Shown piece after piece: positions 16,969-32,390 of a DNA stretch of 32,390 nucleotides. Every line of letters begins with the position of its first letter. Within the stretch, counting starts at the first letter, position 1. Source of the stretch: Myxococcales bacterium (GTDB lineage Bacteria; Myxococcota_A; UBA9042); NCBI GenBank assembly GCA_037441385.1, contig JBBISH010000077.1, positions 1-32,390 on the forward strand, read 5' to 3'. The notes below the pieces were generated by a model, which did no database searches, was not told the DNA's origin, and saw only the letters and a program-made list of their open reading frames with translations. Both the position numbers and the translations under genes were made by a program.

Positions 16969-17213
16969 TACTACAAACCTCAAGGTCTTTCGGGGTCGCT
17001 TTCGTTGGCGTGGGACGCGGCGCGAGCCACACGCGGGGGGCCCGGACTGCGCGGCGCGCCCCCTTGGAAGTGGCTGAAGCGCCTGGACATCGACGGCCCA
17101 GTTTCTTGACAGAGCCGCAGGATGACCTGACCCTGGACGCCTTGCCGTGTCGTCCGCCTCGGGCGGCGCCGACCGCACATTGCCAGCGCCGGTGCTGGCC
17201 AAGGCAGCCTACG

Positions 17214-19553
17214 ATGTACCAGCCCATCTCGTCGGATCTCTCTAACCTTTCGGCCCATTACGATGCCGTGGTCATCGGTTCGGGCTACGGCGGAGCCATC
17301 GCCGCCTGCCGTCTGGCGCAAGCGCGCAAGGCCGACGGATCGCGGCTGCGGGTGGCGGTCTTGGAGCGCGGCCGCGAATTCCTGCCGGGTCAGTACCCGC
17401 GAACTTCGCTGGAGTTTGCCGCCGAAGCCCAGTTCACCGCCTTGGACAAGGTGGTGGGCCGCCGCGACGGCCTGTTCGACTTCCGGGCCAACGGCGACCT
17501 GGCCACCATCTCGGCCTGTGGGCTGGGCGGCACTTCGCTCATCAACGCCGGGGTGGCCATCAAGCCGCTGCCGTGGGTGTTTGCCGACCCCGTGTGGCCG
17601 CAAGGCCTGCGCGACGACCTGGACGCGCTGTACCGGGGCATGGACACCGCCCACGCGATGTTGGGTCTGACGCCATATCCCGACGACCGACCGGTGCCGG
17701 GCAAGCTCAAGGCGCTGCAACTGTCGGCCAACACCATGGGCGCCAAATATTTTACCGCCGATGTGGCGTGCACGTTCACCGCCGGGGTCAACCAGGCGGG
17801 CGTCGCGATGGAGGCGTGCACCGGCTGCGGCGACTGCGTGATGGGCTGCAACGAGAACGCCAAAAACACCACTCTTTACAACTATCTGCCCCTGGCGCAT
17901 CGCCACGGCGCCCAGCTGTTCACGCAGGTGGAGGTGCGCCACCTGGAGCGGCGCGGCGACCACTGGCTGGTGCACTTTGCCTCGCTGATGGGCGACCGCG
18001 AGGACTTCACGACGGATCTGGGTTGCGTCTCCGCGGAGCTGGTGGTGCTGGGCGCCGGCACCCAGGGCACCAACGAGATCCTGATGCGCTCGCGCAGCCA
18101 GGGATTGCCGCTGTCGAACCAGCTGGGGCGGCGCTTTTCGGGCAACGGCGACGCCCTGGGCTTTGGCTACAACACCGACGTGGGCATCGACGCGGTCGGC
18201 TGCGGCTACGACAAGCCCGACCCCGCCAACCCGCCCGGGCCGTGCATCTCGGGCATCATCGACCTGCGCGAGAGCGAGGCCCGCCCCGACTTGGGCATGG
18301 TCATCATGGAGGGCGTGGTCCCGGCGACCTTCAAACCCTTTTTTGGCAGCGTGATGGCCGCCGAGGCAGCGCAGCGCGGACGCCCGACCCGCGACGAACT
18401 GGGCGAGACCGTGGACGGTCTGGTGCGCGAGGCTGAAGGGATCTTGCCCGGAATCTCGCCCGCCGTGCGCAACACGCAGACTTATCTGGTGATGTGCCAC
18501 GACGACAGTGGCGGCCACTTGGAGCTACACGACGGCGACCGCGTCCGCACGGTTTGGCCCAACGCCAGTCGCGACGAGTATTTGCAGGTGGTCGACGACC
18601 GACTTTTCCAGGCCACGTCGGCGCTGGGCGGCATCCACGTGCCGAATCCGACCTGGGGCGGCCACCTGATCGACAAGCTGATCACCTGCCACCCCCTGGG
18701 CGGTGCGATCATGGCCGAAGATGCCAGCCACGGTGTGACAAATCACAAAGGGCAAGTCTTTGCTGGAAAAACCGGTGACGCAGTCTACGACAACCTGCTG
18801 GTGACCGACGCGGCGGTGATGGCGCGCTCGCTGGGCGTCAACCCGCTGCTCACGATCTCGGGCATGGCCGAGCGGGCGCTGGACCACCTGCTGCGCGACC
18901 GCGGCTGGACCCGCGACGAGGCGTTGCCGCCGGCCCCCGAGCCGCGTCCGCAGACGGTCGGCGTGCGCTTTACCGAAAAGATGTCGGGCACTTTGGGGCT
19001 GGGCGACGAGGCGGCGTTCGAGCCGGACCTGATGCCCGATTCGGTGCTGAGCGGCGATGCGTCGTTTGTGGTATGCGTGCAGGCCGACGACTTGGATGCG
19101 GTGCTGGACCGCCCCGGCCACCGCGCGGCGCTGAGCGGCACGCTGCACTGCGAACTGCTGCACCCCGACCCGCTGCAGATCGAGGCGGGCCGCTTCGCGC
19201 TATTCGTCGCGGATCCCAGCAACCCGCAAGACCGGCTGATGCAATACCAATTCGTGGCGGTGGCCGAAGATGGTCGCTGCTGGTACCTGGACGGGGTCAA
19301 GACGCTGCAGGACGGCGCCGGTCTGGGGCTGATTCGGCAAAGCACGACGTTGCGCGTCACGTTGTACGAGGGCCGGCGTGCCGAGGGGCCGATCGCCGGC
19401 CGCGGCAGCCTCTATGTCCACGCTGGCGATCTGGCGCACTCGCTGACCACCTTGGAAGTGCTGGGCACCGACGACCTGGGCGAGAAGGCCAAAGCCCTGG
19501 CGCGGTGTGGGCAATTCTTCCTGGGCACCCTGGCCGAGCTGGCCGTGGAGTAG
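17214..19553 (+). CDS. GMC-family FAD oxidoreductase (cholesterol-oxidase-like) with extra C-terminal beta domain
   Basis: VVIGSGYGG FAD motif, LERG, GLGGTSLINA, CTGCGDCVMGC, TCHPLGG, GVNPLLTI. The C-terminal domain starts near GVRFTEKMSG. Confidence 0.9.
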   Translation: MYQPISSDLSNLSAHYDAVVIGSGYGGAIAACRLAQARKADGSRLRVAVLERGREFLPGQYPRTSLEFAAEAQFTALDKVVGRRDGLFDFRANGDLATISACGLGGTSLINAGVAIKPLPWVFADPVWPQGLRDDLDALYRGMDTAHAMLGLTPYPDDRPVPGKLKALQLSANTMGAKYFTADVACTFTAGVNQAGVAMEACTGCGDCVMGCNENAKNTTLYNYLPLAHRHGAQLFTQVEVRHLERRGDHWLVHFASLMGDREDFTTDLGCVSAELVVLGAGTQGTNEILMRSRSQGLPLSNQLGRRFSGNGDALGFGYNTDVGIDAVGCGYDKPDPANPPGPCISGIIDLRESEARPDLGMVIMEGVVPATFKPFFGSVMAAEAAQRGRPTRDELGETVDGLVREAEGILPGISPAVRNTQTYLVMCHDDSGGHLELHDGDRVRTVWPNASRDEYLQVVDDRLFQATSALGGIHVPNPTWGGHLIDKLITCHPLGGAIMAEDASHGVTNHKGQVFAGKTGDAVYDNLLVTDAAVMARSLGVNPLLTISGMAERALDHLLRDRGWTRDEALPPAPEPRPQTVGVRFTEKMSGTLGLGDEAAFEPDLMPDSVLSGDASFVVCVQADDLDAVLDRPGHRAALSGTLHCELLHPDPLQIEAGRFALFVADPSNPQDRLMQYQFVAVAEDGRCWYLDGVKTLQDGAGLGLIRQSTTLRVTLYEGRRAEGPIAGRGSLYVHAGDLAHSLTTLEVLGTDDLGEKAKALARCGQFFLGTLAELAVE

Positions 19554-19556
19554 CGT

Positions 19557-21839
19557 TTGCCGACACCCCATTCCGATGATCACGACGAGCCCGCGACCGG
19601 CAACCCGGCCGATCGCGGCCACCGCTTCCGCCGCCGGCTGCGCAACACCTGGCGAGGCGAGGTGCTTTGGCGCGTGGTGGTTGTGGTCGCCGCCGTGATT
19701 TTGGGCGGGATTGTCGACCGCTTCCCGGCCGCGCAAGAGCAGGTCTACGTCCTCAAGTTCATGGCCTTGGTGGCCGCGTCTGTGTTTTCGGCCACTTGGC
19801 CGATCATTGCGGCCGTCGAGATCGCCTTGGGCTTGGCTTGGTTGGTGATGGTCCACCGCGGCAACAGCGGTTGGCTGGCGCGCCTGACCGTAGACGCCAA
19901 TCGCACGCTCGGGCACGCCGAAGCACTGATTCCGTGGCTAGTTCTGGCGCTTTTGCTCGATGGCCCCACCTGGGTCCGCTTTGGCATGGGCGCGGCGGTG
20001 GTGGCGTGGGGGCCGCGCGCGCTGGACCGCGTGGTGATGCTCTGGGGGCGGCGCACCGGGCGCGGCGAGCTCGAATCGTCGCAAGTGCAGCGGTATCGCC
20101 GACTTCCTATGTATGTGGCGACTCTGCTGGCCACGGGCATCATCCTGAGCCTGGCGCCCGGTCAGGCGCGGGCGATGTTGCCCTCTGCCGGCGTGGTGTT
20201 GGCGGGCATGGCGTTGCGCTTGTCGGCGACGTGGCAGGCTACGCGCCGCAACAGCGGGCTGACCCACCGCCAGTGGAGCCAGGTCATCGACGTCGCGCTG
20301 GCGTTGGGGGCTGTCGCCATCGTGGGTTACGGCTCGTGGCTGCTGTGCCGACCCAACCCGCAACTGGCCTTTGCCGCCCGCGTCAGCGCCGCGGAGTGTG
20401 CGCCCGAGCCGGCCGAGCCCGCCAAAATCGCCGTGATGCTGGTGGCCGACACGCAGTTCCACGAGCTGCGCGGCCAGCGTTCGGCGGCGCACCTGCCGAT
20501 GGTCGACGCGGTGGTGCCGGTGGCGGTGCGGCCGGTGGCGCTGGACCTGTTGGCGGGCGTGACCCTGGACCACTTTGCCATGCTGTTTCGCCGCTACGTG
20601 GACAGCCACGCGAGCACGCAGACCAGCTACGCTTTCTTGGGCGACTTGGCCGACATCGGCTGCACCAGCGAGATCGAGCGCTATCCTGCCTATTTCGCGC
20701 GCTTTGAGCCGCCGGGCTGGCTGGGCGGGTCGGGGCACTTGGCGGGCATCGCGCCGGGCAACCACGACAACACGTTTGTGGGCAATTTTGCCTGGCACCC
20801 CGATTGGGACACCGCCTGCCACCTGGACATGCCGGCGGGCGGCAGCGGCGCGCGCCTGGACAAGCGCAGTTCGGACGAGGCGATCGCCAAGCTGGTCAAG
20901 CAGTTCGGCTCGGTGGGCGTGACGATGCCCCGCGAGCCGGTGCGCGGTTTTGCCGCTTGGGTCGAGGGGCGCACGACGTTGCCGATGGTCTCGAAACTAG
21001 GCGTGTTGCCGGGCGCCGTGCCGCGGCCGGTGTACGCCGTCTTTGTGGATACGGGCGACAGTGCACTGTGGCAGTACGGGGTCGCCGGCTCGCAGGGGCA
21101 TGTGTCGTCGGCCCAAATCGACTTTGTGCGCGATGCGGTGCCGGCCCAGGCCCTGGTGATCCTGATGATGCACCACCCGTTGGATCAGCTGGGGATTTTC
21201 TCGCGGTTGCGGCTCGCCGAACTGGCCGAGAGCTGGGGCCCGCGGCTGCTGCTGGTGGTGTCGGCCCACACCCACCGCTCGGCATGGCACCCCCACGCGG
21301 CGCTGGGCAGCGTGGAGATGGGCGAATTCACCGTCGGTTCGACGACGGACCCTACGCAAGAAGTAGGAATGCTCGAAATCCGCGGTAGCGCCGAAGCGCC
21401 GCGCCTTCATTTGGCCACGGTGCCTGCGGTGCAACGTCCGGGCATGGATTGCGTGCAGTGGAGCGACCTGGATTCGGCCACCTGCGACCACGAACTGGCC
21501 GATCTGGCGGTCAACTGTCCAAAACTGCTCGAAGACGACTGGCGGGTCAGCTTGCACACGCCCGCCGAGATGACGGAACACCAGCGCGACCTGGCGCAAG
21601 CGATGTTTGCCTGCCTGGGGGTCACGACGCCGGGCCAACCGCTGGACGCCGAGGTCTATACGGCCTGGGCGGCGCGCGACGAGGCCATTCGCCGGCGTTT
21701 TGTCTGCCTGTCGTGGGCCGCGTCGATCCTGCAGCGGCACAAGGTGGATGCCTGGCGCTACACCGACGCAGTGCGCTGCGCGGGCGAAAAATCCGCGACC
21801 TTGGGCGGGTTTGCCGTGGATGTGGTTCGCACGCTGTAG
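19557..21839 (+). CDS. Membrane-anchored calcineurin-like metallophosphoesterase
   Basis: Several N-terminal hydrophobic segments, then motifs DTQFH, GDLAD, GNHD, HHP and AHTH. TTG start 3 nt after the GMC gene stop. Confidence 0.82.
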   Translation: MPTPHSDDHDEPATGNPADRGHRFRRRLRNTWRGEVLWRVVVVVAAVILGGIVDRFPAAQEQVYVLKFMALVAASVFSATWPIIAAVEIALGLAWLVMVHRGNSGWLARLTVDANRTLGHAEALIPWLVLALLLDGPTWVRFGMGAAVVAWGPRALDRVVMLWGRRTGRGELESSQVQRYRRLPMYVATLLATGIILSLAPGQARAMLPSAGVVLAGMALRLSATWQATRRNSGLTHRQWSQVIDVALALGAVAIVGYGSWLLCRPNPQLAFAARVSAAECAPEPAEPAKIAVMLVADTQFHELRGQRSAAHLPMVDAVVPVAVRPVALDLLAGVTLDHFAMLFRRYVDSHASTQTSYAFLGDLADIGCTSEIERYPAYFARFEPPGWLGGSGHLAGIAPGNHDNTFVGNFAWHPDWDTACHLDMPAGGSGARLDKRSSDEAIAKLVKQFGSVGVTMPREPVRGFAAWVEGRTTLPMVSKLGVLPGAVPRPVYAVFVDTGDSALWQYGVAGSQGHVSSAQIDFVRDAVPAQALVILMMHHPLDQLGIFSRLRLAELAESWGPRLLLVVSAHTHRSAWHPHAALGSVEMGEFTVGSTTDPTQEVGMLEIRGSAEAPRLHLATVPAVQRPGMDCVQWSDLDSATCDHELADLAVNCPKLLEDDWRVSLHTPAEMTEHQRDLAQAMFACLGVTTPGQPLDAEVYTAWAARDEAIRRRFVCLSWAASILQRHKVDAWRYTDAVRCAGEKSATLGGFAVDVVRTL

Positions 21840-21869
21840 GCGGCCGAGCGGGTCGCCCCGGAGACGCCG

Positions 21870-22379
21870 ATGACCATCGCCCCGACTGAGCCGACCTACC
21901 CGCAGTGGCGGTTTCGCTCGCAGCGCAACCTGACCCTGCGCTTCGTGACGCTGGTGTGTGCGGCGCCGGTGCCGCTGACGGTGTGGCTGTTGACGCTGGC
22001 GCCAGCGGAAGAGTGGCGCGAGGGGCCGTTTGGCCCGGCGCTGTGGTGGCTGCTGCCGGCCTTCTTGCTGGCTCTGGCCGCGGCCTTGCCGGCGTCGCTG
22101 CTGCTGCTGCACGACCGCTATGTCCTGGCACTGGAGCAACTGGCGCAGAATCGCTGGCGCCTAACCACGTTTGTGCTGTGGGGGGTGCGGCGCCGCGAAC
22201 TGGACTACGATCCGCTGCAGTCGGCCAAGATCCGCTATGTTCCCGGCACATTCGACAGTATGTGGGCGCCGAGCGTGGACGCACCGTACCTGAACGTGAC
22301 GTGCAGCGATGGGCGGCGGCTGATTTTTGACATGCAGGGGGAGTGGCGGCTGGCGCGGCCCGGGGCGCTCAAGGGCTGA
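21870..22379 (+). CDS. Hypothetical membrane protein (2 TM plus small beta-rich domain)
   Basis: GGAG RBS; two hydrophobic helices; co-directional with its neighbours. Confidence 0.65.
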   Translation: MTIAPTEPTYPQWRFRSQRNLTLRFVTLVCAAPVPLTVWLLTLAPAEEWREGPFGPALWWLLPAFLLALAAALPASLLLLHDRYVLALEQLAQNRWRLTTFVLWGVRRRELDYDPLQSAKIRYVPGTFDSMWAPSVDAPYLNVTCSDGRRLIFDMQGEWRLARPGALKG

Positions 22380-22539
22380 AGCTGCGGGTGCATACCGGCT
22401 GCCGGCCCCTGCCCTGCGGACGTGCGCCAGCGCAGCCTTTGCATCGCGCTTGGTTGCGCGCCGCCGGTTGCGGGCGGTCCTGGGGTCCGCTAAACAGGCG
22501 GCCGCCGTGCAGGGTGAGCACCGCAGCAAGGACACAGCC

Positions 22540-23541
22540 ATGACAGAGACCACGCCGCATTGGTCGCAATTGCGCGACCAGGCGTCGCAGGCGGGCTGCT
22601 ATGAGTACCGCCCTTGGCGCGCAATGGCGGCGTTGGTGGCCAACTGGGCCGGGGCTATGGCAGGGTTTGCGCTGGCGTCGCAAGGGGGCGTGTGGCTGCT
22701 GGCGTTTGCGCCGGCGTCGCTGCTGTTCTACCGCCTGGGCTGGCTCATGCACGACGGTGCCCACGGCGCGGTGTTTGGACAACCCAAGGCCGACCGGGTG
22801 TTCACGCTGGTGGCGTGCTTGGCGCTGGGCGAGTTTGCCTCGGGCTGGCAGTACGGCCACAACCGCCACCACGGCGCGCCGAACGTGCGCGGGGTCGACA
22901 GCGACCAGTCCGAGCGCTGGAGTGCGGCCCACACCTTCCACTCCAAGGCCGTTGCCGCAGTGGCGCTGTTCTGGCTGGTGCGGGTGGGCAAGCTGTGGTT
23001 GCCCAAGAGCCTGATCCTGCTGGGGCTTCGCGACGGCGTGTACGCCTATCGCTACCGCCGCGACCGTTTTGCGGTCGAACTAGCGGTGGTGCTGGTCAGC
23101 CATACGCTGCAAATTGCGGGTTTCTGCTGGCTGTTTGGTGCGGCGGGGCCGCTGGCGTGGCTGGTGAACACGCATCTGGGGATGGTGTACCTCAACGCCG
23201 TGTTTGCCGGAAACCACTACGACTTGCCCAGCTTTGAAGCGGGTGCGCAAAAACACATCGACTTCGCCAAGCTGCAGATTGTGACGAGTCGCAACTACCA
23301 AGGTGGTTGGTGGGTGCGGTTCTTGTGCGGCGGCCTGGAGCACCAGATCGAGCACCACCTGTTCCCCACCATGCCGCGCCACGGCACGCTGCGCGCCGAG
23401 CCGCTGGTCCGCCGCTATTGCGCTGAGCGCGGGCTACCCTACGGCGAGCTGCCGCTGCTCGCCTCGCTGGCGCGCGTGCCCGACTTCCACCTGTACCCGC
23501 TGCACGACCGCCTGATCCGCGGCACCGCGGCGCAGCCCTAA
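22540..23541 (+). CDS. Membrane fatty acid desaturase, front-end type
   Basis: Three His boxes HDGAH, HNRHH and QIEHH (GGLEHQIEHHLFPTMPR); AAGGA RBS before ATG 22540; no fused cytochrome b5. Confidence 0.92.
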   Translation: MTETTPHWSQLRDQASQAGCYEYRPWRAMAALVANWAGAMAGFALASQGGVWLLAFAPASLLFYRLGWLMHDGAHGAVFGQPKADRVFTLVACLALGEFASGWQYGHNRHHGAPNVRGVDSDQSERWSAAHTFHSKAVAAVALFWLVRVGKLWLPKSLILLGLRDGVYAYRYRRDRFAVELAVVLVSHTLQIAGFCWLFGAAGPLAWLVNTHLGMVYLNAVFAGNHYDLPSFEAGAQKHIDFAKLQIVTSRNYQGGWWVRFLCGGLEHQIEHHLFPTMPRHGTLRAEPLVRRYCAERGLPYGELPLLASLARVPDFHLYPLHDRLIRGTAAQP

Positions 23542-23565
23542 CGATCCCGCACAGGAGCATCCCCC

Positions 23566-26229
23566 ATGCCAACCGAGCTGCATGTCGCTCGCCCTGAGGA
23601 GCACGGCCCCGCGCCCACAGCCCATCCGGACCCAGAGGGGCCACACCTCGAAGTGCTGCTCACCGGGGCTACGGGATTTGTGGGCAAGGTGGTGCTTGCC
23701 GAATTGCTGCGCCGTCGCGACGAGTTGGGGATTGCCCGCGTCTGGCTGGCCATTCGCCCGCGGCGCGGCAAGCCGGCCCAAGAGCGCTTTGACACCACGC
23801 TTGCCGCCTCGCCTTGCTTTGCGCGTCACGAGCCCGGCTGGCAGCGCGCTTGCCAGGTGGTGGCAGGCGACCTGTGCGACGCGTACGCTGGGTTGAGGCA
23901 AACGGACCGGGCTCTCTTGGCCGACCACGTCACCCACATCATCCACTGCGCGGCGTCGGTCGACTTTGACCTGCCCATCGCCGAAGCGGCGCGGGCCAAC
24001 ATCCAAAGTGCCTTGAACGTGTTGGAGCTGGCCCAGTCGTTGCCCAAGCTGCGCGCCATGGTGGATGTGTCGACCGCCTATGTGACGCCGCATCGCCAAG
24101 CCAACGGCGCGGGCGTGGCCGAGCTGGTGCCGCTGCCCCGGCCCGCCAGCGTGTTGTATCAGGCGATCCTGGACGGGCAAGTTCCAGAAAAGCAGCTACT
24201 TGCCGAGACGGGGCACCCCAACACCTACACCTATACCAAGTGCCTGGCCGAGCACCTGCTCAGCGAGCGCAAGGGCTCGGTGCCCTTGACGATTGTGCGC
24301 CCCAGCATCGTCAGTGCCGCCTGGGAGCACCCGTTTGCCGGCTGGATCGACAGCCACGCCGCCTTTGCCGGGTTCGTGGCGCTGTTTGGCATGGGCTACC
24401 TCCACGAAATCGTGGCCGATCCGCAAGTTCGTCTGGACCTGGTGCCAGTCGACGTCGTGGCGGCCGAGGCCATCGATGCCGCGCTGCAGGGTGATCCGCA
24501 GCGGCCCATTCGCTACGCCGCGGCGGGGTTGCAGGGCGCCAGCCGCATCGGAATGATCGTGGAGCGGGCGGTGGACTATTACAGCCGCCACCCCGCCGGG
24601 CGCCGCGTGACCCCCACCGCCCACGCGGTGCGGACGCCGGTGGTGCGCGCCCGCGAGCTGCTGCGCCACACCTTGCCCACCCAGGCCGCGCGCGCCTGGC
24701 TGTCGGCCACGGGGCGCCCCAAGCAGGCCAAACAGGCGGCTAAACTAAGCGAAAAACTGGCGTATCTGAATCAGGCCTTCCCGGCGTTTTCGTGCCGCGA
24801 GTATGCGTTTGCGCCGTGCCCGCCGCTGCCGGCCGGGTACTCGCCCGAGGTCTACGTCGACCGCATCTACGCCGGGATCTATCGGCATTTGCTAGGCAAG
24901 AGCGAGCGCGAAGTGGCGGTGGCGGGCCGGCGCCACGCCCAGAGCGAGAGCGACTTGGGGTTTGCCCTGGGCCGGCCGCGCGGCGGCTTGGTGGTGCGGT
25001 CGCTGGGGTATGCCCTGCGCAAGGCGCTGCGGCGGGCGGCCGACGTGGTGACCTTTGACCGGCCGTCGTTCGAGGCAGCGCTGGCCCAGGTGCCGCCGGG
25101 CGACACGCTGGTGGTGGTGCCGACCCACCGCAGCTACCTGGATTCGCTGCTTTGTTCGTATTTGTTCTTTGCCGAACCGGCGCTAGGGGTCGACATGCCG
25201 CTGGCGCTGCCACAGGTCGACCACGGCGAGCCCGATTGGCACGACCGCCTGAGCGCGCGGACCCAGGGCGGCGCGGCGCTGCAGTTCTTTGTGGAGGGAG
25301 GGCGTGGGCAGGCGCGGCGTTTTCACGCGCCCAGCGTGGCGCTGCTGCGGGCGCTGCAGGCCAGCGGACGCCCGTATTCGCTGCTGCCGGTGGCGGTGGC
25401 CTACGATCGAATGATCGAAGAGCGATTGATTCATCACGAGTTGCACCCCGACGCGCGCGTGACGGCGGCGGACTTGCTCGACCTGGCCCAGGGTCTGCGG
25501 CGGCGCCACGTGGAGCTGGGGCGGGTCCACCTGGCAGCCGGCGCGCCGGTGCGCTTGACCCCGCAAAGCCCGGTGCGGCAAGCGGCGCAGTCGGTGTTGG
25601 GCGAGTTGCAGCGGCAGACGGTGACGACCACCTTTCACCTCCGGGCGTTTTTGGCCCGGCAACCGGTTGAGCACGCCACGCTGGAGTGGCTGCGCGACGT
25701 GTTGGTGCAGCGCGGGCTGACGGTGCTCGACAGTGGCCTGGGCGGCGAGGAGCAGTTGCCGGCCACGGTAGAGGGCGGCCTGCGTCACCACTGGCGCCAC
25801 GCCCTGTACCCCGAGGCGCTGGTGCGGTGGCCCGAGCATCCGGTGGTGGCCCACCACGTGGCGCGGCACGGCGCGGGCCTGCCGGGGCGGCCCGTCGACC
25901 CGGCGAGCCTGGAAGATCCGCGCTTGCCGGCGCTGCTGGACGCGCTGTTTCTGCCTCTGATTGAAGATGTTGCGCGGGTGCTGCAACTGGTGGGGCCGGC
26001 CCACGCGCCGCTTGGCGACCTGAGCCTGCGCCAACTGCGCCGCGACCTGCCAGAGGCCCCAGCCGAGCACTTGCACGACGCGTTGGCGCTGCTCAGCGAG
26101 CGAGGCATCCTGATGCGCGACCACGACTTGCACGATTGGCACTGGGGGCCGGCGGCCGAGACGCTCGCCGACCTGGCCGCCCGCTGTGGCGACGGGCAGG
26201 GCGCCGCAGTCGAGCGTTCGGCGGCATGA
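23566..26229 (+). CDS. Fatty acyl-CoA reductase fused to a PlsB/GNPAT-like glycerolipid acyltransferase domain
   Basis: TGATGFVGK, IIHCAASVDFD, VSTAY, PNTYTYTK (YxxxK) and RPSIV of the FAR family; then PTHRSYLD (HxxxxD), FFVEGGR and PV.VAYDR of acyltransferases. AGGAG RBS. Confidence 0.9.
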   Translation: MPTELHVARPEEHGPAPTAHPDPEGPHLEVLLTGATGFVGKVVLAELLRRRDELGIARVWLAIRPRRGKPAQERFDTTLAASPCFARHEPGWQRACQVVAGDLCDAYAGLRQTDRALLADHVTHIIHCAASVDFDLPIAEAARANIQSALNVLELAQSLPKLRAMVDVSTAYVTPHRQANGAGVAELVPLPRPASVLYQAILDGQVPEKQLLAETGHPNTYTYTKCLAEHLLSERKGSVPLTIVRPSIVSAAWEHPFAGWIDSHAAFAGFVALFGMGYLHEIVADPQVRLDLVPVDVVAAEAIDAALQGDPQRPIRYAAAGLQGASRIGMIVERAVDYYSRHPAGRRVTPTAHAVRTPVVRARELLRHTLPTQAARAWLSATGRPKQAKQAAKLSEKLAYLNQAFPAFSCREYAFAPCPPLPAGYSPEVYVDRIYAGIYRHLLGKSEREVAVAGRRHAQSESDLGFALGRPRGGLVVRSLGYALRKALRRAADVVTFDRPSFEAALAQVPPGDTLVVVPTHRSYLDSLLCSYLFFAEPALGVDMPLALPQVDHGEPDWHDRLSARTQGGAALQFFVEGGRGQARRFHAPSVALLRALQASGRPYSLLPVAVAYDRMIEERLIHHELHPDARVTAADLLDLAQGLRRRHVELGRVHLAAGAPVRLTPQSPVRQAAQSVLGELQRQTVTTTFHLRAFLARQPVEHATLEWLRDVLVQRGLTVLDSGLGGEEQLPATVEGGLRHHWRHALYPEALVRWPEHPVVAHHVARHGAGLPGRPVDPASLEDPRLPALLDALFLPLIEDVARVLQLVGPAHAPLGDLSLRQLRRDLPEAPAEHLHDALALLSERGILMRDHDLHDWHWGPAAETLADLAARCGDGQGAAVERSAA

Positions 26230-27452
26230 TTTCGTCGGGCGCGCTGAGGCGCAACTTGGTGCTGTTTCCCCTGTCCTTCTTGGGGAGCGGCCTGGGCAAC
26301 GTGGTGCCGCAGCTCTTCTTTCGGGCGCACGCGCCGGCCGAAAAGGAGCGCCTGCTGGCGGCCTGCCTGCTAGCGGGTGCGCTGGTGTCGCTGGCGGGAG
26401 TGGCGGCAGGGCGGGCGTTGCAGGGTTGGGCGCTACAGGGGCGGGCGCAGGTGGGGACGCTGGCCGGCACCCTCTCGCTGGTCGCGGTGGGCGCGGTGTT
26501 CCTGGGGGCGCTGGGCACGGCGTCGCTATCGCTGTTCATCAGTGCGTACCTGGGCTTGCGCCTGTTGCTCAACGCGCAGACGCAGGTCTTCGATCGGCGC
26601 GCCGTGGGCGCCACCCCAGCGGACGAAAGGCGCGGCAGCGACTTCGCCAACACCGTGTACCGCTTGCTGGGGATGATGCTGGGGTCGTTCTATTTTGCCC
26701 TGTTCTTCGATGCCTGGCAGGTCTCGGCGCTGCTGTTGGCTGGGCTGGTGGCCGCGGCCGCGTGGTCCGTGGCGGCAAGCGCGACCCCGCAAGTGCCGAC
26801 CGCTGCCGAGCAACCGGCCCGCCAGCGCACCACGCCAGGTGATCATTTGGTGGTCGCTGCGGGCACCTGCGCCTATGCGACGCTGTATCTGTTTGGCGCC
26901 AACCTGACTTATCTGCTGGCTGATTGGCTGCACGTGGCTGAGCCTGGGCGCCTGGCGGGCTGGCTGCTGCTGGCGGTGTACGGCGCCTCGGTGCTGGGCG
27001 CGGGGCTGGTGGCGTGGCTGGCGCGGTGGCGGCGGCGTCCGCCGGGGCTGGACGCGCTGCCGTTTGCCATGGCGAGCGTGTTGATTGGCGGCGGGGCGCT
27101 GCTGGCGCTGACGCCTCTGGCCTCGCAGTTGCCTGTTCTGCTGACGCTTTCGGCGGCGATGGGGGTGGCCCACGCTTTCTTCTTGAGCGAGGCGCGCGAC
27201 CACAGCACCCGCGGCGCCGCGGCAGGGCGCACCGGCCTCCTCGCCGGCTACAACAACATGGCTAACGCCGGAGCGGTTCTGGGTTTTGCCGCGATGACGG
27301 CACTGGCGGCGACCCCGTTGCGGCAGGCGGGCCTGTTCCACCCGGCGCTGCTGGGCGTGATTGCGACGTTGGCGGCCCTCAGCGGCGCGGCGGCGCTGGC
27401 GGCGGCCCGACTCGATCCCCTCAACCTGGCTCGATCCAAGGAGAAACCGTGA
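26226..27452 (+). CDS. MFS-like polytopic membrane protein
   Basis: About 12 hydrophobic segments in two halves with a central loop; start overlaps the upstream stop (ATGA). Confidence 0.72.
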   Translation: MISSGALRRNLVLFPLSFLGSGLGNVVPQLFFRAHAPAEKERLLAACLLAGALVSLAGVAAGRALQGWALQGRAQVGTLAGTLSLVAVGAVFLGALGTASLSLFISAYLGLRLLLNAQTQVFDRRAVGATPADERRGSDFANTVYRLLGMMLGSFYFALFFDAWQVSALLLAGLVAAAAWSVAASATPQVPTAAEQPARQRTTPGDHLVVAAGTCAYATLYLFGANLTYLLADWLHVAEPGRLAGWLLLAVYGASVLGAGLVAWLARWRRRPPGLDALPFAMASVLIGGGALLALTPLASQLPVLLTLSAAMGVAHAFFLSEARDHSTRGAAAGRTGLLAGYNNMANAGAVLGFAAMTALAATPLRQAGLFHPALLGVIATLAALSGAAALAAARLDPLNLARSKEKP

Positions 27453-28399
27453 CCCTCTGGCCCCCCGATCCCAACAACCTGGGCCCCGGCGTGCGCGCCC
27501 TGTACGGAGCCGTCGTGGGTATGCTGGTGCTGGGCAGCGCGCTCCCCGAGCTGGCGAACCGCAGCGGCCGCCGCGACTTGCGCGACTATCGGGCCAAGAT
27601 GCGCTCGTGGTGGCTCGTGTCGCTCAGCCTGATGGCGGCCGTGGCGCTGGGGCCGCTGGCCGTGGCCGCCCTCTTTGCCGCAGTGAGCGTCGCGGCGCTG
27701 CGCGAATACTTTGCGCTTTTGCCGGTGCGCCCAGGGCCGGCGCTGGAACGGGCGGCGCTGCTGCTGGTGGTGGCGCACTACGCGGCGCTGGTGGTGACGG
27801 GCTCGGCCGTACCGCTGCTCGCCCTGCCTGCGGCGTTGGCCGTGCTGCTGCCGGCGCTCGTGCTGGGGCTGGGCGAGCCAGAAACCTTTGTCCCGGTACT
27901 GGGTTCCTTGACCTGGGGCATCTTGCTGGCGGGCTGGAGCCTGAGCCACGTGGCCGCGCTGGCGCTGCTGCCGCTGCCGACCACGCCGCTAGGTGGGCGC
28001 GCGGCGTGGGTGGCAAGCCTGCTGTTTCTGGTGCTGGTGGGCGACGCGATGCAGTACGTGTGGGGTCGCCTGGCGGGACGCCACCGGTTGGTGCCCAAGC
28101 TGTCGCCCAAGAAGACCTGGGAAGGGCTGCTGGGCGGCGCGCTCACCGTGGCGGCGCTGTCGGCCGCGCTGTTGCCACGCGTCATCGCGGTGGGGCCCTA
28201 CGAATCCGCCGGCCTGGGTTTTGTCGCCGTAGTCGGCGGTTTTGTGGGCGATATCACCCTGTCGGCCATCAAGCGCTGGGCGGGCGTCAAGGACACGGGG
28301 ACGCTGCTGCCGGGCATGGGCGGGCTGTTTGACCGGGTCGACAGCCTGGTGCTAACCGCGCCCGTGTATTTTCACTTGGTGGCGAGGACTTGGGGGTAG
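27449..28399 (+). CDS. Phosphatidate cytidylyltransferase family protein (CdsA/YnbB-like)
   Basis: D..QYVWGR..G...L.PKLSPKKTWEG and GD...SAIKR..GVKDTG.LLPGMGG..DR.DSL signature; the RSWW motif resembles YnbB-type paralogs. GTGA overlap with the upstream gene. Confidence 0.92.
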   Translation: MTLWPPDPNNLGPGVRALYGAVVGMLVLGSALPELANRSGRRDLRDYRAKMRSWWLVSLSLMAAVALGPLAVAALFAAVSVAALREYFALLPVRPGPALERAALLLVVAHYAALVVTGSAVPLLALPAALAVLLPALVLGLGEPETFVPVLGSLTWGILLAGWSLSHVAALALLPLPTTPLGGRAAWVASLLFLVLVGDAMQYVWGRLAGRHRLVPKLSPKKTWEGLLGGALTVAALSAALLPRVIAVGPYESAGLGFVAVVGGFVGDITLSAIKRWAGVKDTGTLLPGMGGLFDRVDSLVLTAPVYFHLVARTWG

Positions 28400-28497
28400 G
28401 GCGCCGCCGTGCGGGAAGTGGGCAGGCGGTTGGTGCCGATGGTTCGCTTTGACCCGGTTTTGCCCAAGGGGCCATGCCCGGAACAGCAAGCGCCCGA

Positions 28498-28523
28498 GTA
28501 GGGGCGGGCTTCCACGCCCGCCC
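28498..28523 (+). repeat. GTAG-tagged REP-like palindrome
   Basis: GTAG-GGGCGGGC-TTCCAC-GCCCGCCC, about 100 bp after the cytidylyltransferase stop. Confidence 0.65.
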
Positions 28524-28619
28524 GGTTCGGTGAGCAACGGCAGGTCGCTTCGAACCCTGCACGCAGGTCGGGAGTGCGGTACGGGTTCAGGTTCAGGATC
28601 AGGTCCGGATCTAGGACCA

Positions 28620-28685
28620 GGTTCAGGTCTCCACTTGGCCGAGTCCGCTGGACTCGCCTATCCCTTTGGGCACATGGGGGCCCCT
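28620..28685. repeat. 66-bp structured intergenic repeat, copy 2 (inverted relative to copy 1)
   Basis: GGTTCAGGTCTCCACTTGGCCGAGTCCGCTGGACTCGCCTATCCCTTTGGGCACATGGGGGCCCCT; 5 mismatches to copy 1. Confidence 0.9.
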
Positions 28686-29049
28686 GGTCCGTGGCCAGGT
28701 TTAGGTTCAGGCCCGGGTCCGCCGCGTCCGGGTACGAGCAGGCCTCCGGCCTGCGACCGGGCAAGCTTGCGGGGAACCGTGGGCGAGTTGTCAGGCGGGC
28801 CGGCGGCTGAAGCCGCGCCTAGGGTTGCCAGGCCCCACCTCGCGGCCGGCCGTGCGGCCAGCCAGCTCGTGCGGCTTCGTGGTCGGGGTGTTCTGGGCGC
28901 TCCGTGGTCGAATTCAGCTGGCCAAGCCGGAACTTCTGCGCCTCCCCGCGGAAATAACCGCGACGGTGACGGAGCGGATACCCGTTGAAGATCGCAGACT
29001 TCGAACTCACATGGCGCCATTCCTGCAGGGGGACCCGGCCGAAGCGGTG

Positions 29050-29078
29050 CCCTATTGGAACTTTTAGTTCCAATAGGG
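29050..29078. repeat. Perfect 13-bp inverted repeat with a 3-nt spacer
   Basis: CCCTATTGGAACT-TTT-AGTTCCAATAGGG. Confidence 0.9.
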
Positions 29079-29492
29079 AGAATTTGAATTTAGCGGAAGC
29101 AAAGGCCCCTCAGCGCCAAGTTGCTTGCACAATAACGGCTTTCTGCCTGGGTCCCAGGGTTCGCCGGCATGACGGGACTGGGAAAGGCAGGGAGATTCGT
29201 GTTCGCGACGGTGCCGACGGCCGGGGTACGGCGACTCGTTCCTTATCGGCTGCTGACTCTGGCGCCGGGTCGAATGTCCCTCACCCCCGGCCCACGGCCG
29301 ACACCTATCCCACTAGAGCTGGCGAGATGTAAAGTGAAATTGTATCTCCCCTCGCCCAAAGCGTTGGGAGGGCGGGGCGACCACCAAAGGCGGCGGGGTA
29401 AGGGCCGAGTGCCAAGGATCGCACAGGTTTCCAACACAAATTCGGCACCGGTAGTGTCCGGTGAAGCAGCCAGCGCGGCCCGGCCTCACAAG

Positions 29493-29534
29493 GCGACCCG
29501 GCAAGCGACCCGGCAAGCGACCCGGCAAGCGACC
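29493..29534. repeat. 12-bp tandem repeat, 3.5 copies
   Basis: (GCGACCCGGCAA)3 GCGACC. Confidence 0.9.
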
Positions 29535-29707
29535 ATGCGGCCTCGCGGTTCCCACGCCCAGCGCAAGCCCCACTAACTTCAGCGCTTGGGCGCACTTCAC
29601 AACGACTGGCCCCTTGCCGCCCCAGATCCGTTGCGTCGGCTTGCCGCTGGGGCGCAGCTTCGGGCACACTGCCGGCAGCGCGATGGCTGCCATTCCCCGA
29701 GGTCCAG

Positions 29708-32390
29708 ATGAGCTCGTCTTGTCGCAGTTTCGTTCGAATTCATCGGCTCTTGCTGGTCGCATTGGCCGCAGGCCTGCTCGCTGGTTGCGGCGACGACGCG
29801 GCCCCAACCGGGACGGCACCAGCTGCCGTGGATGCAGCGGTGGACACGGGGGTAGGCGACACCGCCTTGGGCGATGGCTTGGCGGGCGAAGACGGCGCTG
29901 CCGGCGATGCCGTGGCGGGCGACGCGCCGCAAGGGGACACCGCGCAAACCGATACGGCCGCGCCCGACGCCATCCAGCCCGACAGCGCGCAAAGTGATGC
30001 GACCCCGGCCGACACCAACCCGCCCGACGCAACCGCGGGCGACGCCGCGGCCGATGCGACAGGGCAAGACGACACCGCCGTGGCCGATGCCCAGGGCGAC
30101 GACGCCGAAGCCCCGGACGGCACCGTGGACGATGCGGCCGGACCGGACGGCAGCAGCCCCGACGCCACCGGCGATAGCGGCGGTGACGACGCCGTGGTGT
30201 TGGAAACCACCCTGTGCAACCCGTGCTCGAGCGACAGCGCCTGCGGCAGCGGCAGCGTCTGCGCCAACTATGGCGCAGCAGCGGGCTCGTTCTGCGCGCC
30301 CACTTGCCTCAGCAACGCCGAGTGCGCCAAGGGTTTCCACTGCGCCACCGCCACGGGCGCGGCCGGCACCCAGGTCAGCGCGTGCTTGAAAGACGCCGAC
30401 CAGGCCGGCGGCCCAGAACCGGGCACCTGTGCGTGCTCGGCCCAAGCCAGCCAGGCGGGCCTTTCGACCAGTTGCAGCGCGAGCAACGAGGCCGGAACCT
30501 GCACGGGCGTGCGCAGTTGCGGGCCTTCGGGCCTGGGCCCCTGCAGTGCAGCCGTGCCCGCGGCCGAGGTCTGCGACGGCGCCGACAACGACTGCAACGG
30601 CCAGACCGACGACGTGGACTGCGGCGACGGCAACCCTTGCACCACAGACACTTGCGACCCCAAGGCCGGCGGCTGCCAGCACCAAGCCAGCAACGGCGTC
30701 TGCAGCGACGGCAACGCCTGCACCAGCGGCGACGCGTGCAAAGACGGCAGCTGCAGCGGCACGACCGAAGTGGTCTGTGGCGACGGAAACCCTTGCACAG
30801 CTGACAGTTGTGACCCCACCAGCGGTTGCGCCAGCGTGAACCTGGCCGACGGCGCCACCTGCGACGCCGACGGCAGCGCCTGCACCCCCGGCGACGCCTG
30901 CCAGGCCGGCAGTTGCGCGGTGGGCGCCCCCGTCGACTGCGACGACAAGGACCCGTGCACGGCCGACGTGTGCGACAAGACCAGCGGGCTGTGCGCGCAC
31001 CCGTCGTTCGGCACCGGCACCGAGTGCGACGACGGCTCGGTCTGCACCGTGCTGGACGCATGCAGCGACGGCAAGTGCCAGGGCGTCCCAATCAGCTGCA
31101 ACGACAGCAACCCGTGCACCGTCGACGCCTGCGACGCGCTCACCGGCTGCGCCCACGCGCCCAGCGACGGAGAACTGTGTGAAGACGGCGATTTGTGCAC
31201 GGTAGCCGACGTGTGCAAGGCCGGCGAGTGCACCTCGGGCGGCCCCAAGACCTGCGCCGACGCCGGCTCGTGCTTGATCAGCTCGTGCAACCCCATCGAC
31301 GGCAGCTGCGCGACCGCCGCCAAGCCCGCGGGGGCCAGCTGCGACGATGGCACGGCTTGTACCGAGAACGACGTCTGCGGCGACAAGGGCTGCGCCGGCA
31401 CGCCGGTCTCGTGCGACGACAAGAACGTCTGCACCGCCGATAGCTGCGACACCACCGCCGGTTGCGTGCACACCCCCACGTCGGCGCCTTGCAGTGACGA
31501 CAACCTGTGCACCGATTTCGACGCATGCGACGGCGGCGTGTGCGTGGGCCTGGCCAAGGACCCCACCCAGGCGTGCGACGACAAGAACCCTTGCACCACC
31601 GACGCTTGTGACCCACCGGTCGGCTGCACCCACACCAGCGTCAACGCGGCGTGCGAAGACGGCAGCGCCTGCACCACCGGCGACACCTGCGTCGCGGGCA
31701 CCTGCGTCGCGGGCACCAACCAGTGCGCGTGCAAGCAGGACAGCGACTGCGCCGGCCTGGAAGACGGCAACCTGTGCAACGGCACGCTGTATTGCCAGAT
31801 CGGCGCCGGCTCTTCGGTGTGCACGGTCGACCCCAAGACGGTGGTGGTCTGCCCGGCGTCGTCCGTGGCGTGCACCGTCAATACCTGCGAGCCCGCCACG
31901 GGCAAGTGCGGTCCCACACCGGGCGAAGACGGCGTGGCCTGCGACGCGGACGGCAGCGTCTGCACGGCCGGCGACAAGTGCCAGGGTGGCAAGTGCCTGC
32001 CCGGCGCCAGCCTGTCGTGCGACGACAAGAACCCGTGCACCAACGATAGCTGCGATCCCAAGCTGGGTTGCGTGGCCGCCGCCAACACCGCCGCTTGCGA
32101 CGACGGCAACCCGTGCAGCGTCGGCGACATTTGCGCCGGCAAGGTCTGCACCCCCGGCAAGCCGATGGTCTGCGACGACAAGAACCCTTGCACCAGCGAT
32201 GCTTGCGTGGTCAGCGCCGGCGATCCGCCCACCGGCAAGTGCCAGTCGACCCCCTCGGCGGGCTCGTGCAGCGACGGCAACCCCTGCACCGACCTGGACA
32301 CCTGCAAAGACGGCGTGTGCGTCGCCGGTGCGCCCAAGGTGTGCAACGACAACAACCCCTGCACGGACGACGCCTGCGACCCCAAGACCG
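29708..32390 (+). CDS. Large Cys-rich repeat surface lipoprotein (partial; runs off the window; not in the ORF track)
   Basis: GAGG RBS; MSSSCRSFVRIHRLLLVALAAGLLAGC lipobox; D/A-rich linker; one EVCDGADNDCNGQTDD motif; many CDDxNPCTxDxC repeats resembling Dictyostelium CTDC repeats. No in-frame stop noticed. Confidence 0.9.
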   Translation, partial: MSSSCRSFVRIHRLLLVALAAGLLAGCGDDAAPTGTAPAAVDAAVDTGVGDTALGDGLAGEDGAAGDAVAGDAPQGDTAQTDTAAPDAIQPDSAQSDATPADTNPPDATAGDAAADATGQDDTAVADAQGDDAEAPDGTVDDAAGPDGSSPDATGDSGGDDAVVLETTLCNPCSSDSACGSGSVCANYGAAAGSFCAPTCLSNAECAKGFHCATATGAAGTQVSACLKDADQAGGPEPGTCACSAQASQAGLSTSCSASNEAGTCTGVRSCGPSGLGPCSAAVPAAEVCDGADNDCNGQTDDVDCGDGNPCTTDTCDPKAGGCQHQASNGVCSDGNACTSGDACKDGSCSGTTEVVCGDGNPCTADSCDPTSGCASVNLADGATCDADGSACTPGDACQAGSCAVGAPVDCDDKDPCTADVCDKTSGLCAHPSFGTGTECDDGSVCTVLDACSDGKCQGVPISCNDSNPCTVDACDALTGCAHAPSDGELCEDGDLCTVADVCKAGECTSGGPKTCADAGSCLISSCNPIDGSCATAAKPAGASCDDGTACTENDVCGDKGCAGTPVSCDDKNVCTADSCDTTAGCVHTPTSAPCSDDNLCTDFDACDGGVCVGLAKDPTQACDDKNPCTTDACDPPVGCTHTSVNAACEDGSACTTGDTCVAGTCVAGTNQCACKQDSDCAGLEDGNLCNGTLYCQIGAGSSVCTVDPKTVVVCPASSVACTVNTCEPATGKCGPTPGEDGVACDADGSVCTAGDKCQGGKCLPGASLSCDDKNPCTNDSCDPKLGCVAAANTAACDDGNPCSVGDICAGKVCTPGKPMVCDDKNPCTSDACVVSAGDPPTGKCQSTPSAGSCSDGNPCTDLDTCKDGVCVAGAPKVCNDNNPCTDDACDPKT

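Follow-up and report, generated by a model that had tools for sequence, protein, structure and literature searches.

The stretch of DNA analysed here (the window) is the whole 32,390-nucleotide contig JBBISH010000077.1 (C77) of genome assembly GCA_037441385.1 (6.63 Mb, 221 contigs, 91% complete), from an uncultured Myxococcales bacterium, and it carries a four-gene lipid-related operon that includes a fusion of a fatty acyl-CoA reductase (FAR) domain with an acyltransferase domain. The four open reading frames (ORFs), all on the + strand, encode a membrane di-iron fatty-acid desaturase without a cytochrome b5 domain (P0002, 333 aa, 22540-23541; PF00487, 1.2e-27), the FARAT-family fusion, in which FAR is joined to an altered GNPAT/PlsB-type acyltransferase (P0001, 887 aa, 23566-26229; PF07993, 4e-62), an MFS-fold transporter of an unnamed subfamily (P0003, 408 aa, 26226-27452) and a YnbB-type paralogue of CdsA (P0004, 316 aa, 27449-28399; PF01148, 3e-47). 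A 24-nt gap follows the first gene and the next two junctions are an ATGA and a GTGA overlap; an AGGA/GGAG-type ribosome-binding site precedes three of the four starts, and GC content at third codon positions (GC3) is 0.85-0.88 in the four genes, similar to that of the adjoining genes. A sigma-70 promoter search gave no match, and terminator-like sites occurred near chance level. A Logan contig from run X1 is identical to the window over positions 19000-28521 (0 differences, 0 gaps), and a single assembly is therefore not the only place where the sequence occurs; the run is probably the source sample and thus not independent. No RNA run was listed as containing the sequence. The tight coupling of the four genes noted in a first-pass annotation of this DNA was confirmed, its domain calls were correct, and its general reading of the locus as a lipid-related operon is upheld.

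By domain order and homology, P0001 belongs to the MXAN_1675-type FARATs. Such FAR-GNPAT fusions are known from the Myxococcus xanthus AGPS-FARAT-epimerase operon, in which MXAN_1675 is the fusion gene (PMC9131029, PMC13012113). The activities of MXAN_1675-type proteins are still assigned from sequence (PMC9131029), and the bacterial FARAT has been proposed as the ancestor of eukaryotic FAR and GNPAT (PMC13012113). The earlier statement that the gene set matches neither known arrangement therefore does not apply to the fusion itself. A search spanning 487-1553 aa, a range outside which shorter FAR-only forms fall, returned 503 homologues, the named ones pointing to Myxococcota; P0001 shows full-length homology to bacterial FARAT proteins, with 38-47% identity over most of its length to the 119 listed besides itself (best 46-47%) and 43% to the genome's own FARAT on contig C69. 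The C-terminal half is PlsB-like (NF003441, 3e-12), with PF01553 at 0.001, under the cut-off, and 7eoz (rice FAR) and 8e4y (human GPAT1) are structural matches to the predicted model. A P0001 pattern search of a genome contig collection gave 298 pattern matches, of which 0 were confirmed. The FAR catalytic domain (residues 28-330, 23647-24555) carries the NADPH-binding and YxxxK motifs (TGATGFVGK, YTYTK) and, when conserved columns are defined as those kept in at least 90% of the 119 homologues listed, FAR_N of P0001 keeps 78 of 79 such columns, on which basis the reductase is judged to be intact.

The acyltransferase half of P0001 has lost motif II, a feature that the first-pass annotation did not recognise. 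Motif I (HRSYLD, with H521 and D526; 25126-25143) is intact, and motif III (EGGRGQ; 25294-25311) keeps E577, G578 and R580, with the following S-R replaced by G-Q; at 25201-25245, motif spacing and conserved columns place an in-frame loss of ~24 residues that includes motif II (AFYxxRG). Motif II is present in all 119 homologues listed, and the distance from motif I to the FxEG of motif III is 53 residues in P0001, compared with 76-77 in 116 of the 119; all 26 relatives' loci checked (L004-L029) likewise have motif II and the 76-77 spacing. The acyltransferase of P0001 keeps 20 of 22 conserved columns before the deletion, 0 of 12 within it, 24 of 36 after it and 11 of 12 in the C-terminal part. 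For the post-deletion stretch the homologue minimum is 31, and the C69 copy has 36 of 36, keeping all conserved acyltransferase columns; a PF01553 scan of the genome found the C69 copy (5e-18), and the window copy was not among its 13 matches. Of motifs I-IV, P0001 retains the first, the core of the third and the Pro of the fourth, with H521, D526, E577, G578, R580, R584 and P608 all in place. An assembly artefact is not supported as the source of the deletion, because the Logan contig, though probably from the same sample, is identical across the site, and neither the DNA nor GC3 gives evidence of a compensated frameshift: the 887-codon frame is open, and GC3 along the gene is even (0.73-0.93), including the deletion site. 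The AlphaFold2 model of the domain has a mean pLDDT of 89.9, with 68-83 near the deletion, and rests on intact homologues.

Motif II has been implicated in binding of glycerol 3-phosphate (G3P) or lysophosphatidic acid, and its Arg in binding of the acyl acceptor; substitution of this Arg (R149A) abolishes AGPAT1 activity, and motif II mutations in DHAPAT cause rhizomelic chondrodysplasia punctata type 2 (RCDP2) (PMC4280512). Because P0001 lacks motif II, its capacity for glycerolipid acylation has probably been lost. This bears on the self-contained module proposed in the first-pass annotation, in which the fusion would acylate G3P or dihydroxyacetone phosphate (DHAP) and the four genes would synthesise a new glycerolipid, activate it and export it, all in the absence of AGPS. 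Although the tight coupling of the genes and the largely preserved motifs I, III and IV would suit such a route, it is very improbable given a missing motif that every listed homologue possesses, the lack of any head-group transferase in the window, unlike the related cluster of genome G494 described below, and the presence of AGPS and CarF elsewhere in the genome. An alternative use of the domain is that it has been neofunctionalised to acylate a non-phosphorylated acceptor, for example the protein's own fatty alcohol, giving a wax ester, or an alkylglycerol, with the MFS protein exporting the product. The seven retained residues, the confident AlphaFold2 prediction over most of the domain (though based on intact homologues) and reports of active enzymes with reduced motif sets (PMC4280512) would be consistent with this, but 12 more conserved columns are lost beyond the deletion, a CdsA-type enzyme would have no role in wax-ester synthesis, and the literature searched offered no precedent, so that we regard neofunctionalisation as quite unlikely. 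A PF03007 (WS/DGAT) scan gave no match, a negative that carries no information because its control matched nowhere either. We likewise doubt, on present evidence, a rewired FARAT that would constitute a new one-polypeptide enzyme, in which an unsaturated fatty alcohol would be acylated by a PlsB-fold wax-ester synthase or passed to the YnbB-type enzyme as a phosphatidyl acceptor, and an undescribed lipid class exported by the MFS protein.

The genome carries ether-lipid genes outside the operon. Contig C69 carries a canonical AGPS-FARAT-epimerase operon in full order and contig C95 a CarF/PEDS1 gene, so the ether-forming step is encoded elsewhere, as the first-pass annotation had allowed. A housekeeping cdsA adjoins uppS on contig C35, and P0004 is thus not the sole cdsA product of the genome. 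The genome scan outlined at first pass accordingly recovered AGPS, carF and the housekeeping cdsA; for elbD, the 13 PF07993 matches of this genome, which is 91% complete, included no ElbD-sized frame. The genome also encodes two CDP-alcohol phosphotransferases. In the window itself there is no head-group transferase, and the FARAT gene has neither AGPS upstream nor an epimerase of the short-chain dehydrogenase/reductase (SDR) type downstream, the MXAN_1676-1674-type arrangement that is found on C69.

A second FARAT is unusual among the relatives of this organism: one strong FARAT-type match was found in 27 of 60 relatives and a second copy in 0 of 60. In FARAT trees (FastTree, 145 rows; quick IQ-TREE, 34 rows selected by hand), the C69 copy clusters with same-genus copies and P0001 lies outside them, beside a set that includes Cystobacter and Melittangium proteins (SH-aLRT 95, FastTree 0.90), a position near the midpoint root that names no donor. 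Constraining P0001 to group with the four closest native copies was rejected (approximately unbiased test, p-AU 0.0003; IQ-TREE, 34 rows), which rules out a recent in-genome duplication of the native FARAT. The metallophosphoesterase gene upstream of the operon was located in three of ten same-genus genomes, and in all three it is followed by other genes, not the cassette. Horizontal gain of P0001 is probably the simplest reading of this placement, the alternative being an ancient paralogue.

The desaturase P0002 has the three His boxes of a di-iron desaturase (HDGAH, HNRHH and QIEHH), which are conserved in the subfamily alignment (A5). A third His box with Q (the Q-box) is a marker of 'front-end' desaturases. 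The subfamily comprises 69 proteins at 44-93% identity among 85 matches, and close homologues (43-53%) were read at five loci, none with the P0003-type MFS gene. In one of these (L146, G494), a cdsA-like gene, a CDP-alcohol transferase gene and the desaturase gene stand in a row; another has a fatty-acid hydroxylase gene upstream, and the other three have no lipid neighbour. A further protein, P0309, is a P0002-type desaturase fused to a CDP-alcohol transferase. Among 21 MFS clusters, hand-picked from ~150 listed and half of them from the nearest clade, five share the exact longest-contig size and source with one of the 69 subfamily desaturases (shifted control: mean 0.15, maximum 2), which implies that desaturase and MFS genes lie on the same contig, not that they are adjacent. 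None of the 119 FARATs listed (of 503, with shorter forms outside the search) shares those matched contig sizes; a single FARAT/desaturase size match (6752) came from different sources and was taken as chance.

The last gene of the operon encodes a CdsA paralogue of the YnbB type. P0004 keeps the SPKKTWEG and D-x-G...GG-x-x-DR-x-DS motifs, is 34% identical to Escherichia coli YnbB vs 28% to E. coli CdsA, and has an N-terminal extension and a QY-x-x-G motif in common with YnbB; these features, its intact C-terminal motifs, its YnbB-like N-terminal half and the separate housekeeping cdsA place it in this class. YnbB is dispensable; it increases MPIase and does not substitute for CdsA as regards bulk phospholipids (PMC6362211). 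Close homologues of P0004 were found in seven of 300 other genomes of the phylum, next to the P0003-family MFS gene (one), a ynbA-like gene (two, one Pfam-confirmed), a desaturase and an MFS gene of other kinds (two) or no lipid gene (two). At L088/L089 (8300-12200), one operon combines a YnbB-type cdsA with a desaturase and an MFS gene that both differ from those of the window, the same three functions being supplied by other subfamilies.

The transporter P0003 has no Pfam or NCBIfam match, and its assignment as an MFS protein comes from a predicted two-bundle, 12-helix fold (AlphaFold2, pLDDT 94.5; Foldseek; Atlas). MFS_1 is matched by 48 of 106 members of the P0003 family, and the Foldseek matches do not distinguish lipid transporters from solute transporters within the MFS. 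The family comprises 215 proteins at 50% clustering and is rare: it occurs in four of 401 genomes of the phylum including this one (G000), in four of 22 in family f45 and in six of the 281 genomes from G162's order, and a plasmid collection gave no match for it. We read 22 loci of the family (21 distinct, L098 repeating L090), leaving out a weak partial match (L056, G315; 3.6e-4) and an unrelated MFS fragment joined to a desaturase (P0352, MFS_2). Lipid-enzyme neighbours were present at 17 of the 22, most often a cardiolipin-synthase-like phospholipase D (PLD; 15 of 22), eleven of these PLD loci coming from one sequence pattern and so not being independent. A CdsA-like gene was next door at two (L053 and L133, in genomes G186 and G508), and no clear lipid gene was seen at five (L054, L055, L104, L135 and L137), some of them short or ending at a contig edge. 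At five of the PLD loci, the PLD is accompanied by a desaturase (28-36% to P0002, another subfamily) and a cyclopropane fatty acid (CFA) synthase. This company with desaturases, PLDs, CFA synthases, CdsA paralogues and one AGPS points to a role for the P0003 family as an uncharacterised transporter of a lipid or head group.

Several of these loci are of interest in themselves. The desaturase/PLD/MFS/CFA-synthase cluster recurs at L134, L136, L138 and L139 (family f51) and at L094 (Bryobacteraceae), with a patatin-like gene in L138, and a published description of it was not found. In a Methylobacter metagenome-assembled genome (L091, CAZJOY010000007.1, 22-9185), a reductase-ended polyketide synthase (PKS), an AGPS that is 46% identical to that of C69, an SDR, a CDP-alcohol phosphotransferase, a PLD and a P0003-family MFS gene lie in one run, with the appearance of a whole ether-lipid cluster fed by a PKS, in a genus of methanotrophs. 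At L092, L093, L100 and L102 an acyl-CoA dehydrogenase gene is divergent from PLD-MFS, followed in L092 and L093 by a 2315-aa AMP-ligase/PKS. We also considered a sphingolipid pathway (desaturase, methyltransferase and CDP enzyme) and rejected it: the neighbouring methyltransferase is CFA-synthase-like, the 18 PF00155 matches are headed by Kbl, two HisC and an aminotransferase, with no Spt among those four, and the accessible part of PMC12275187 gave no support.

Desaturase, MFS and YnbB-type CdsA genes thus form a loose recurring module, found in partial sets without a FARAT. The reading we prefer, although we place it somewhat short of an even chance, is that the operon is a lineage-specific lipid-tailoring unit that would provide the host's AGPS/CarF route with fatty alcohol, with P0001 a FAR-only, probably horizontally acquired second FARAT. 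Because its reductase half is intact and motif II is lost, P0001 is likely a fatty-alcohol-forming reductase only. From the observed gene content, motif II loss, partner genes and partial recurrence of the module, we infer all substrates and products as follows. P0002 would put a double bond into an acyl chain, and the FAR domain of P0001 would reduce the acyl-CoA to a fatty alcohol, possibly an unsaturated one. The C69 FARAT and AGPS would make acyl-DHAP and exchange in that alcohol, P0004 would CDP-activate a non-standard phosphatidate analogue, and head-group transferases encoded elsewhere would finish the lipid. CarF may form a vinyl ether, and P0003 would carry a lipid, a lysolipid or a head-group substrate through the inner membrane.

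Several observations weigh against this reading. The canonical FARAT has a FAR of its own, so a second FAR is unexplained unless chain specificity differs. FAR_C of P0001 retains seven of the 11 conserved columns, fewer than any homologue listed (minimum 8), which suggests that the reductase half may also have changed. The catalytic residues H521, D526, E577 and R580 are all retained, which would not be required of a long-dead domain. No FARAT was found at any of the 22 MFS-family loci, nor a full-length FARAT in any of ten genomes tested (eight bearing the MFS gene, two with other cassette homologues), so that the ether-lipid link rests on this genome and on the AGPS of the Methylobacter locus. 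Finally, the four-gene set was not found in relatives and is known from this genome only; of the desaturase/MFS/CdsA neighbourhood around the fusion, whose conservation the first-pass annotation proposed as a check, only two- and three-gene subsets lacking the FARAT were seen again.

Some of these points favour a different explanation, that P0001 is a decaying passenger: the working unit would be phospholipid remodelling by the desaturase, MFS and YnbB-type proteins, and the fusion a redundant xenologue losing function from its acyltransferase end, with no dedicated product. The recurrence of the other three genes without a FARAT, scores for P0001 below those of all 119 homologues listed in both the acyltransferase core and FAR_C, the intact FARAT elsewhere in the genome and the restriction of the set to one genome would all be expected on this view. 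Against decay stand 887 open codons, even GC3 across the deletion site, a nearly complete FAR_N and translational coupling of P0001 to the MFS gene, and we consider it rather unlikely, if the most serious competitor to the lipid-tailoring reading.

Each part of the operon belongs to a known family, FARAT included, and for the four-gene combination we found no earlier description in the open-access literature; a preprint on sponge ether lipids (10.64898/2026.06.23.733905) does not cover the gene set in its accessible portion. The significance of the set is limited by its being a singleton from an uncultured organism. Even so, P0001 and the intact C69 copy in one genome offer a natural pair for studying how the fusion becomes FAR-only or re-targeted, and the P0003 MFS subfamily may be of more general interest, keeping company with lipid enzymes across Myxococcota-type genomes, Methylobacter and Bryobacteraceae.

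The surroundings of the operon are as follows. Upstream on the + strand (17010-21839), a GMC oxidoreductase gene precedes the membrane metallophosphoesterase-like gene, a pair kept in G001 (52-54%). A 169-aa membrane-type ORF without a significant Pfam match (21870-22379, + strand) ends 160 nt 5' of the desaturase gene; it is absent at the equivalent site in three same-genus loci and may have arrived with the cassette. Downstream, 28400-29900 is intergenic and contains dispersed repeats (145 blastn matches genome-wide) and a perfect 13-bp hairpin (29050-29078). At 30214-32390, long frames overlap on both strands: a Cys-rich repeat protein is apparently encoded on the + strand, and the 705-aa frame on the - strand may be its shadow.

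Compared with known systems, P0001 resembles the FARAT of the MXAN_1676-1675-1674 operon in its N-terminal FAR, GNPAT/PlsB-type acyltransferase and length of ~900 aa (PMC13012113, PMC9131029), but the window copy lacks motif II and the AGPS and epimerase neighbours, is a second copy from another lineage, and has desaturase, MFS and YnbB-type genes as its neighbours. With ElbD it has in common the FAR and acyltransferase domains and a myxobacterial ether-lipid context (PMC9131029), but it carries neither an acyl-CoA synthetase nor an ACP domain and thus does not belong to the ElbD class. P0004 resembles E. coli YnbB of ynbABCD in combining PF01148 with a YnbB-type N-terminal half beside a separate housekeeping cdsA (PMC6362211), whereas no ynbA, ynbC or ynbD neighbour lies in the window. 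Lastly, the pairing of an MFS protein with an acyltransferase-containing fusion, and the PLD, patatin and CFA-synthase neighbours of the P0003 family, recall the LplT-Aas system of lysophospholipid remodelling (PMC11416262), but the partner of P0003 combines FAR with an acyltransferase rather than an acyltransferase with an acyl-ACP synthetase.

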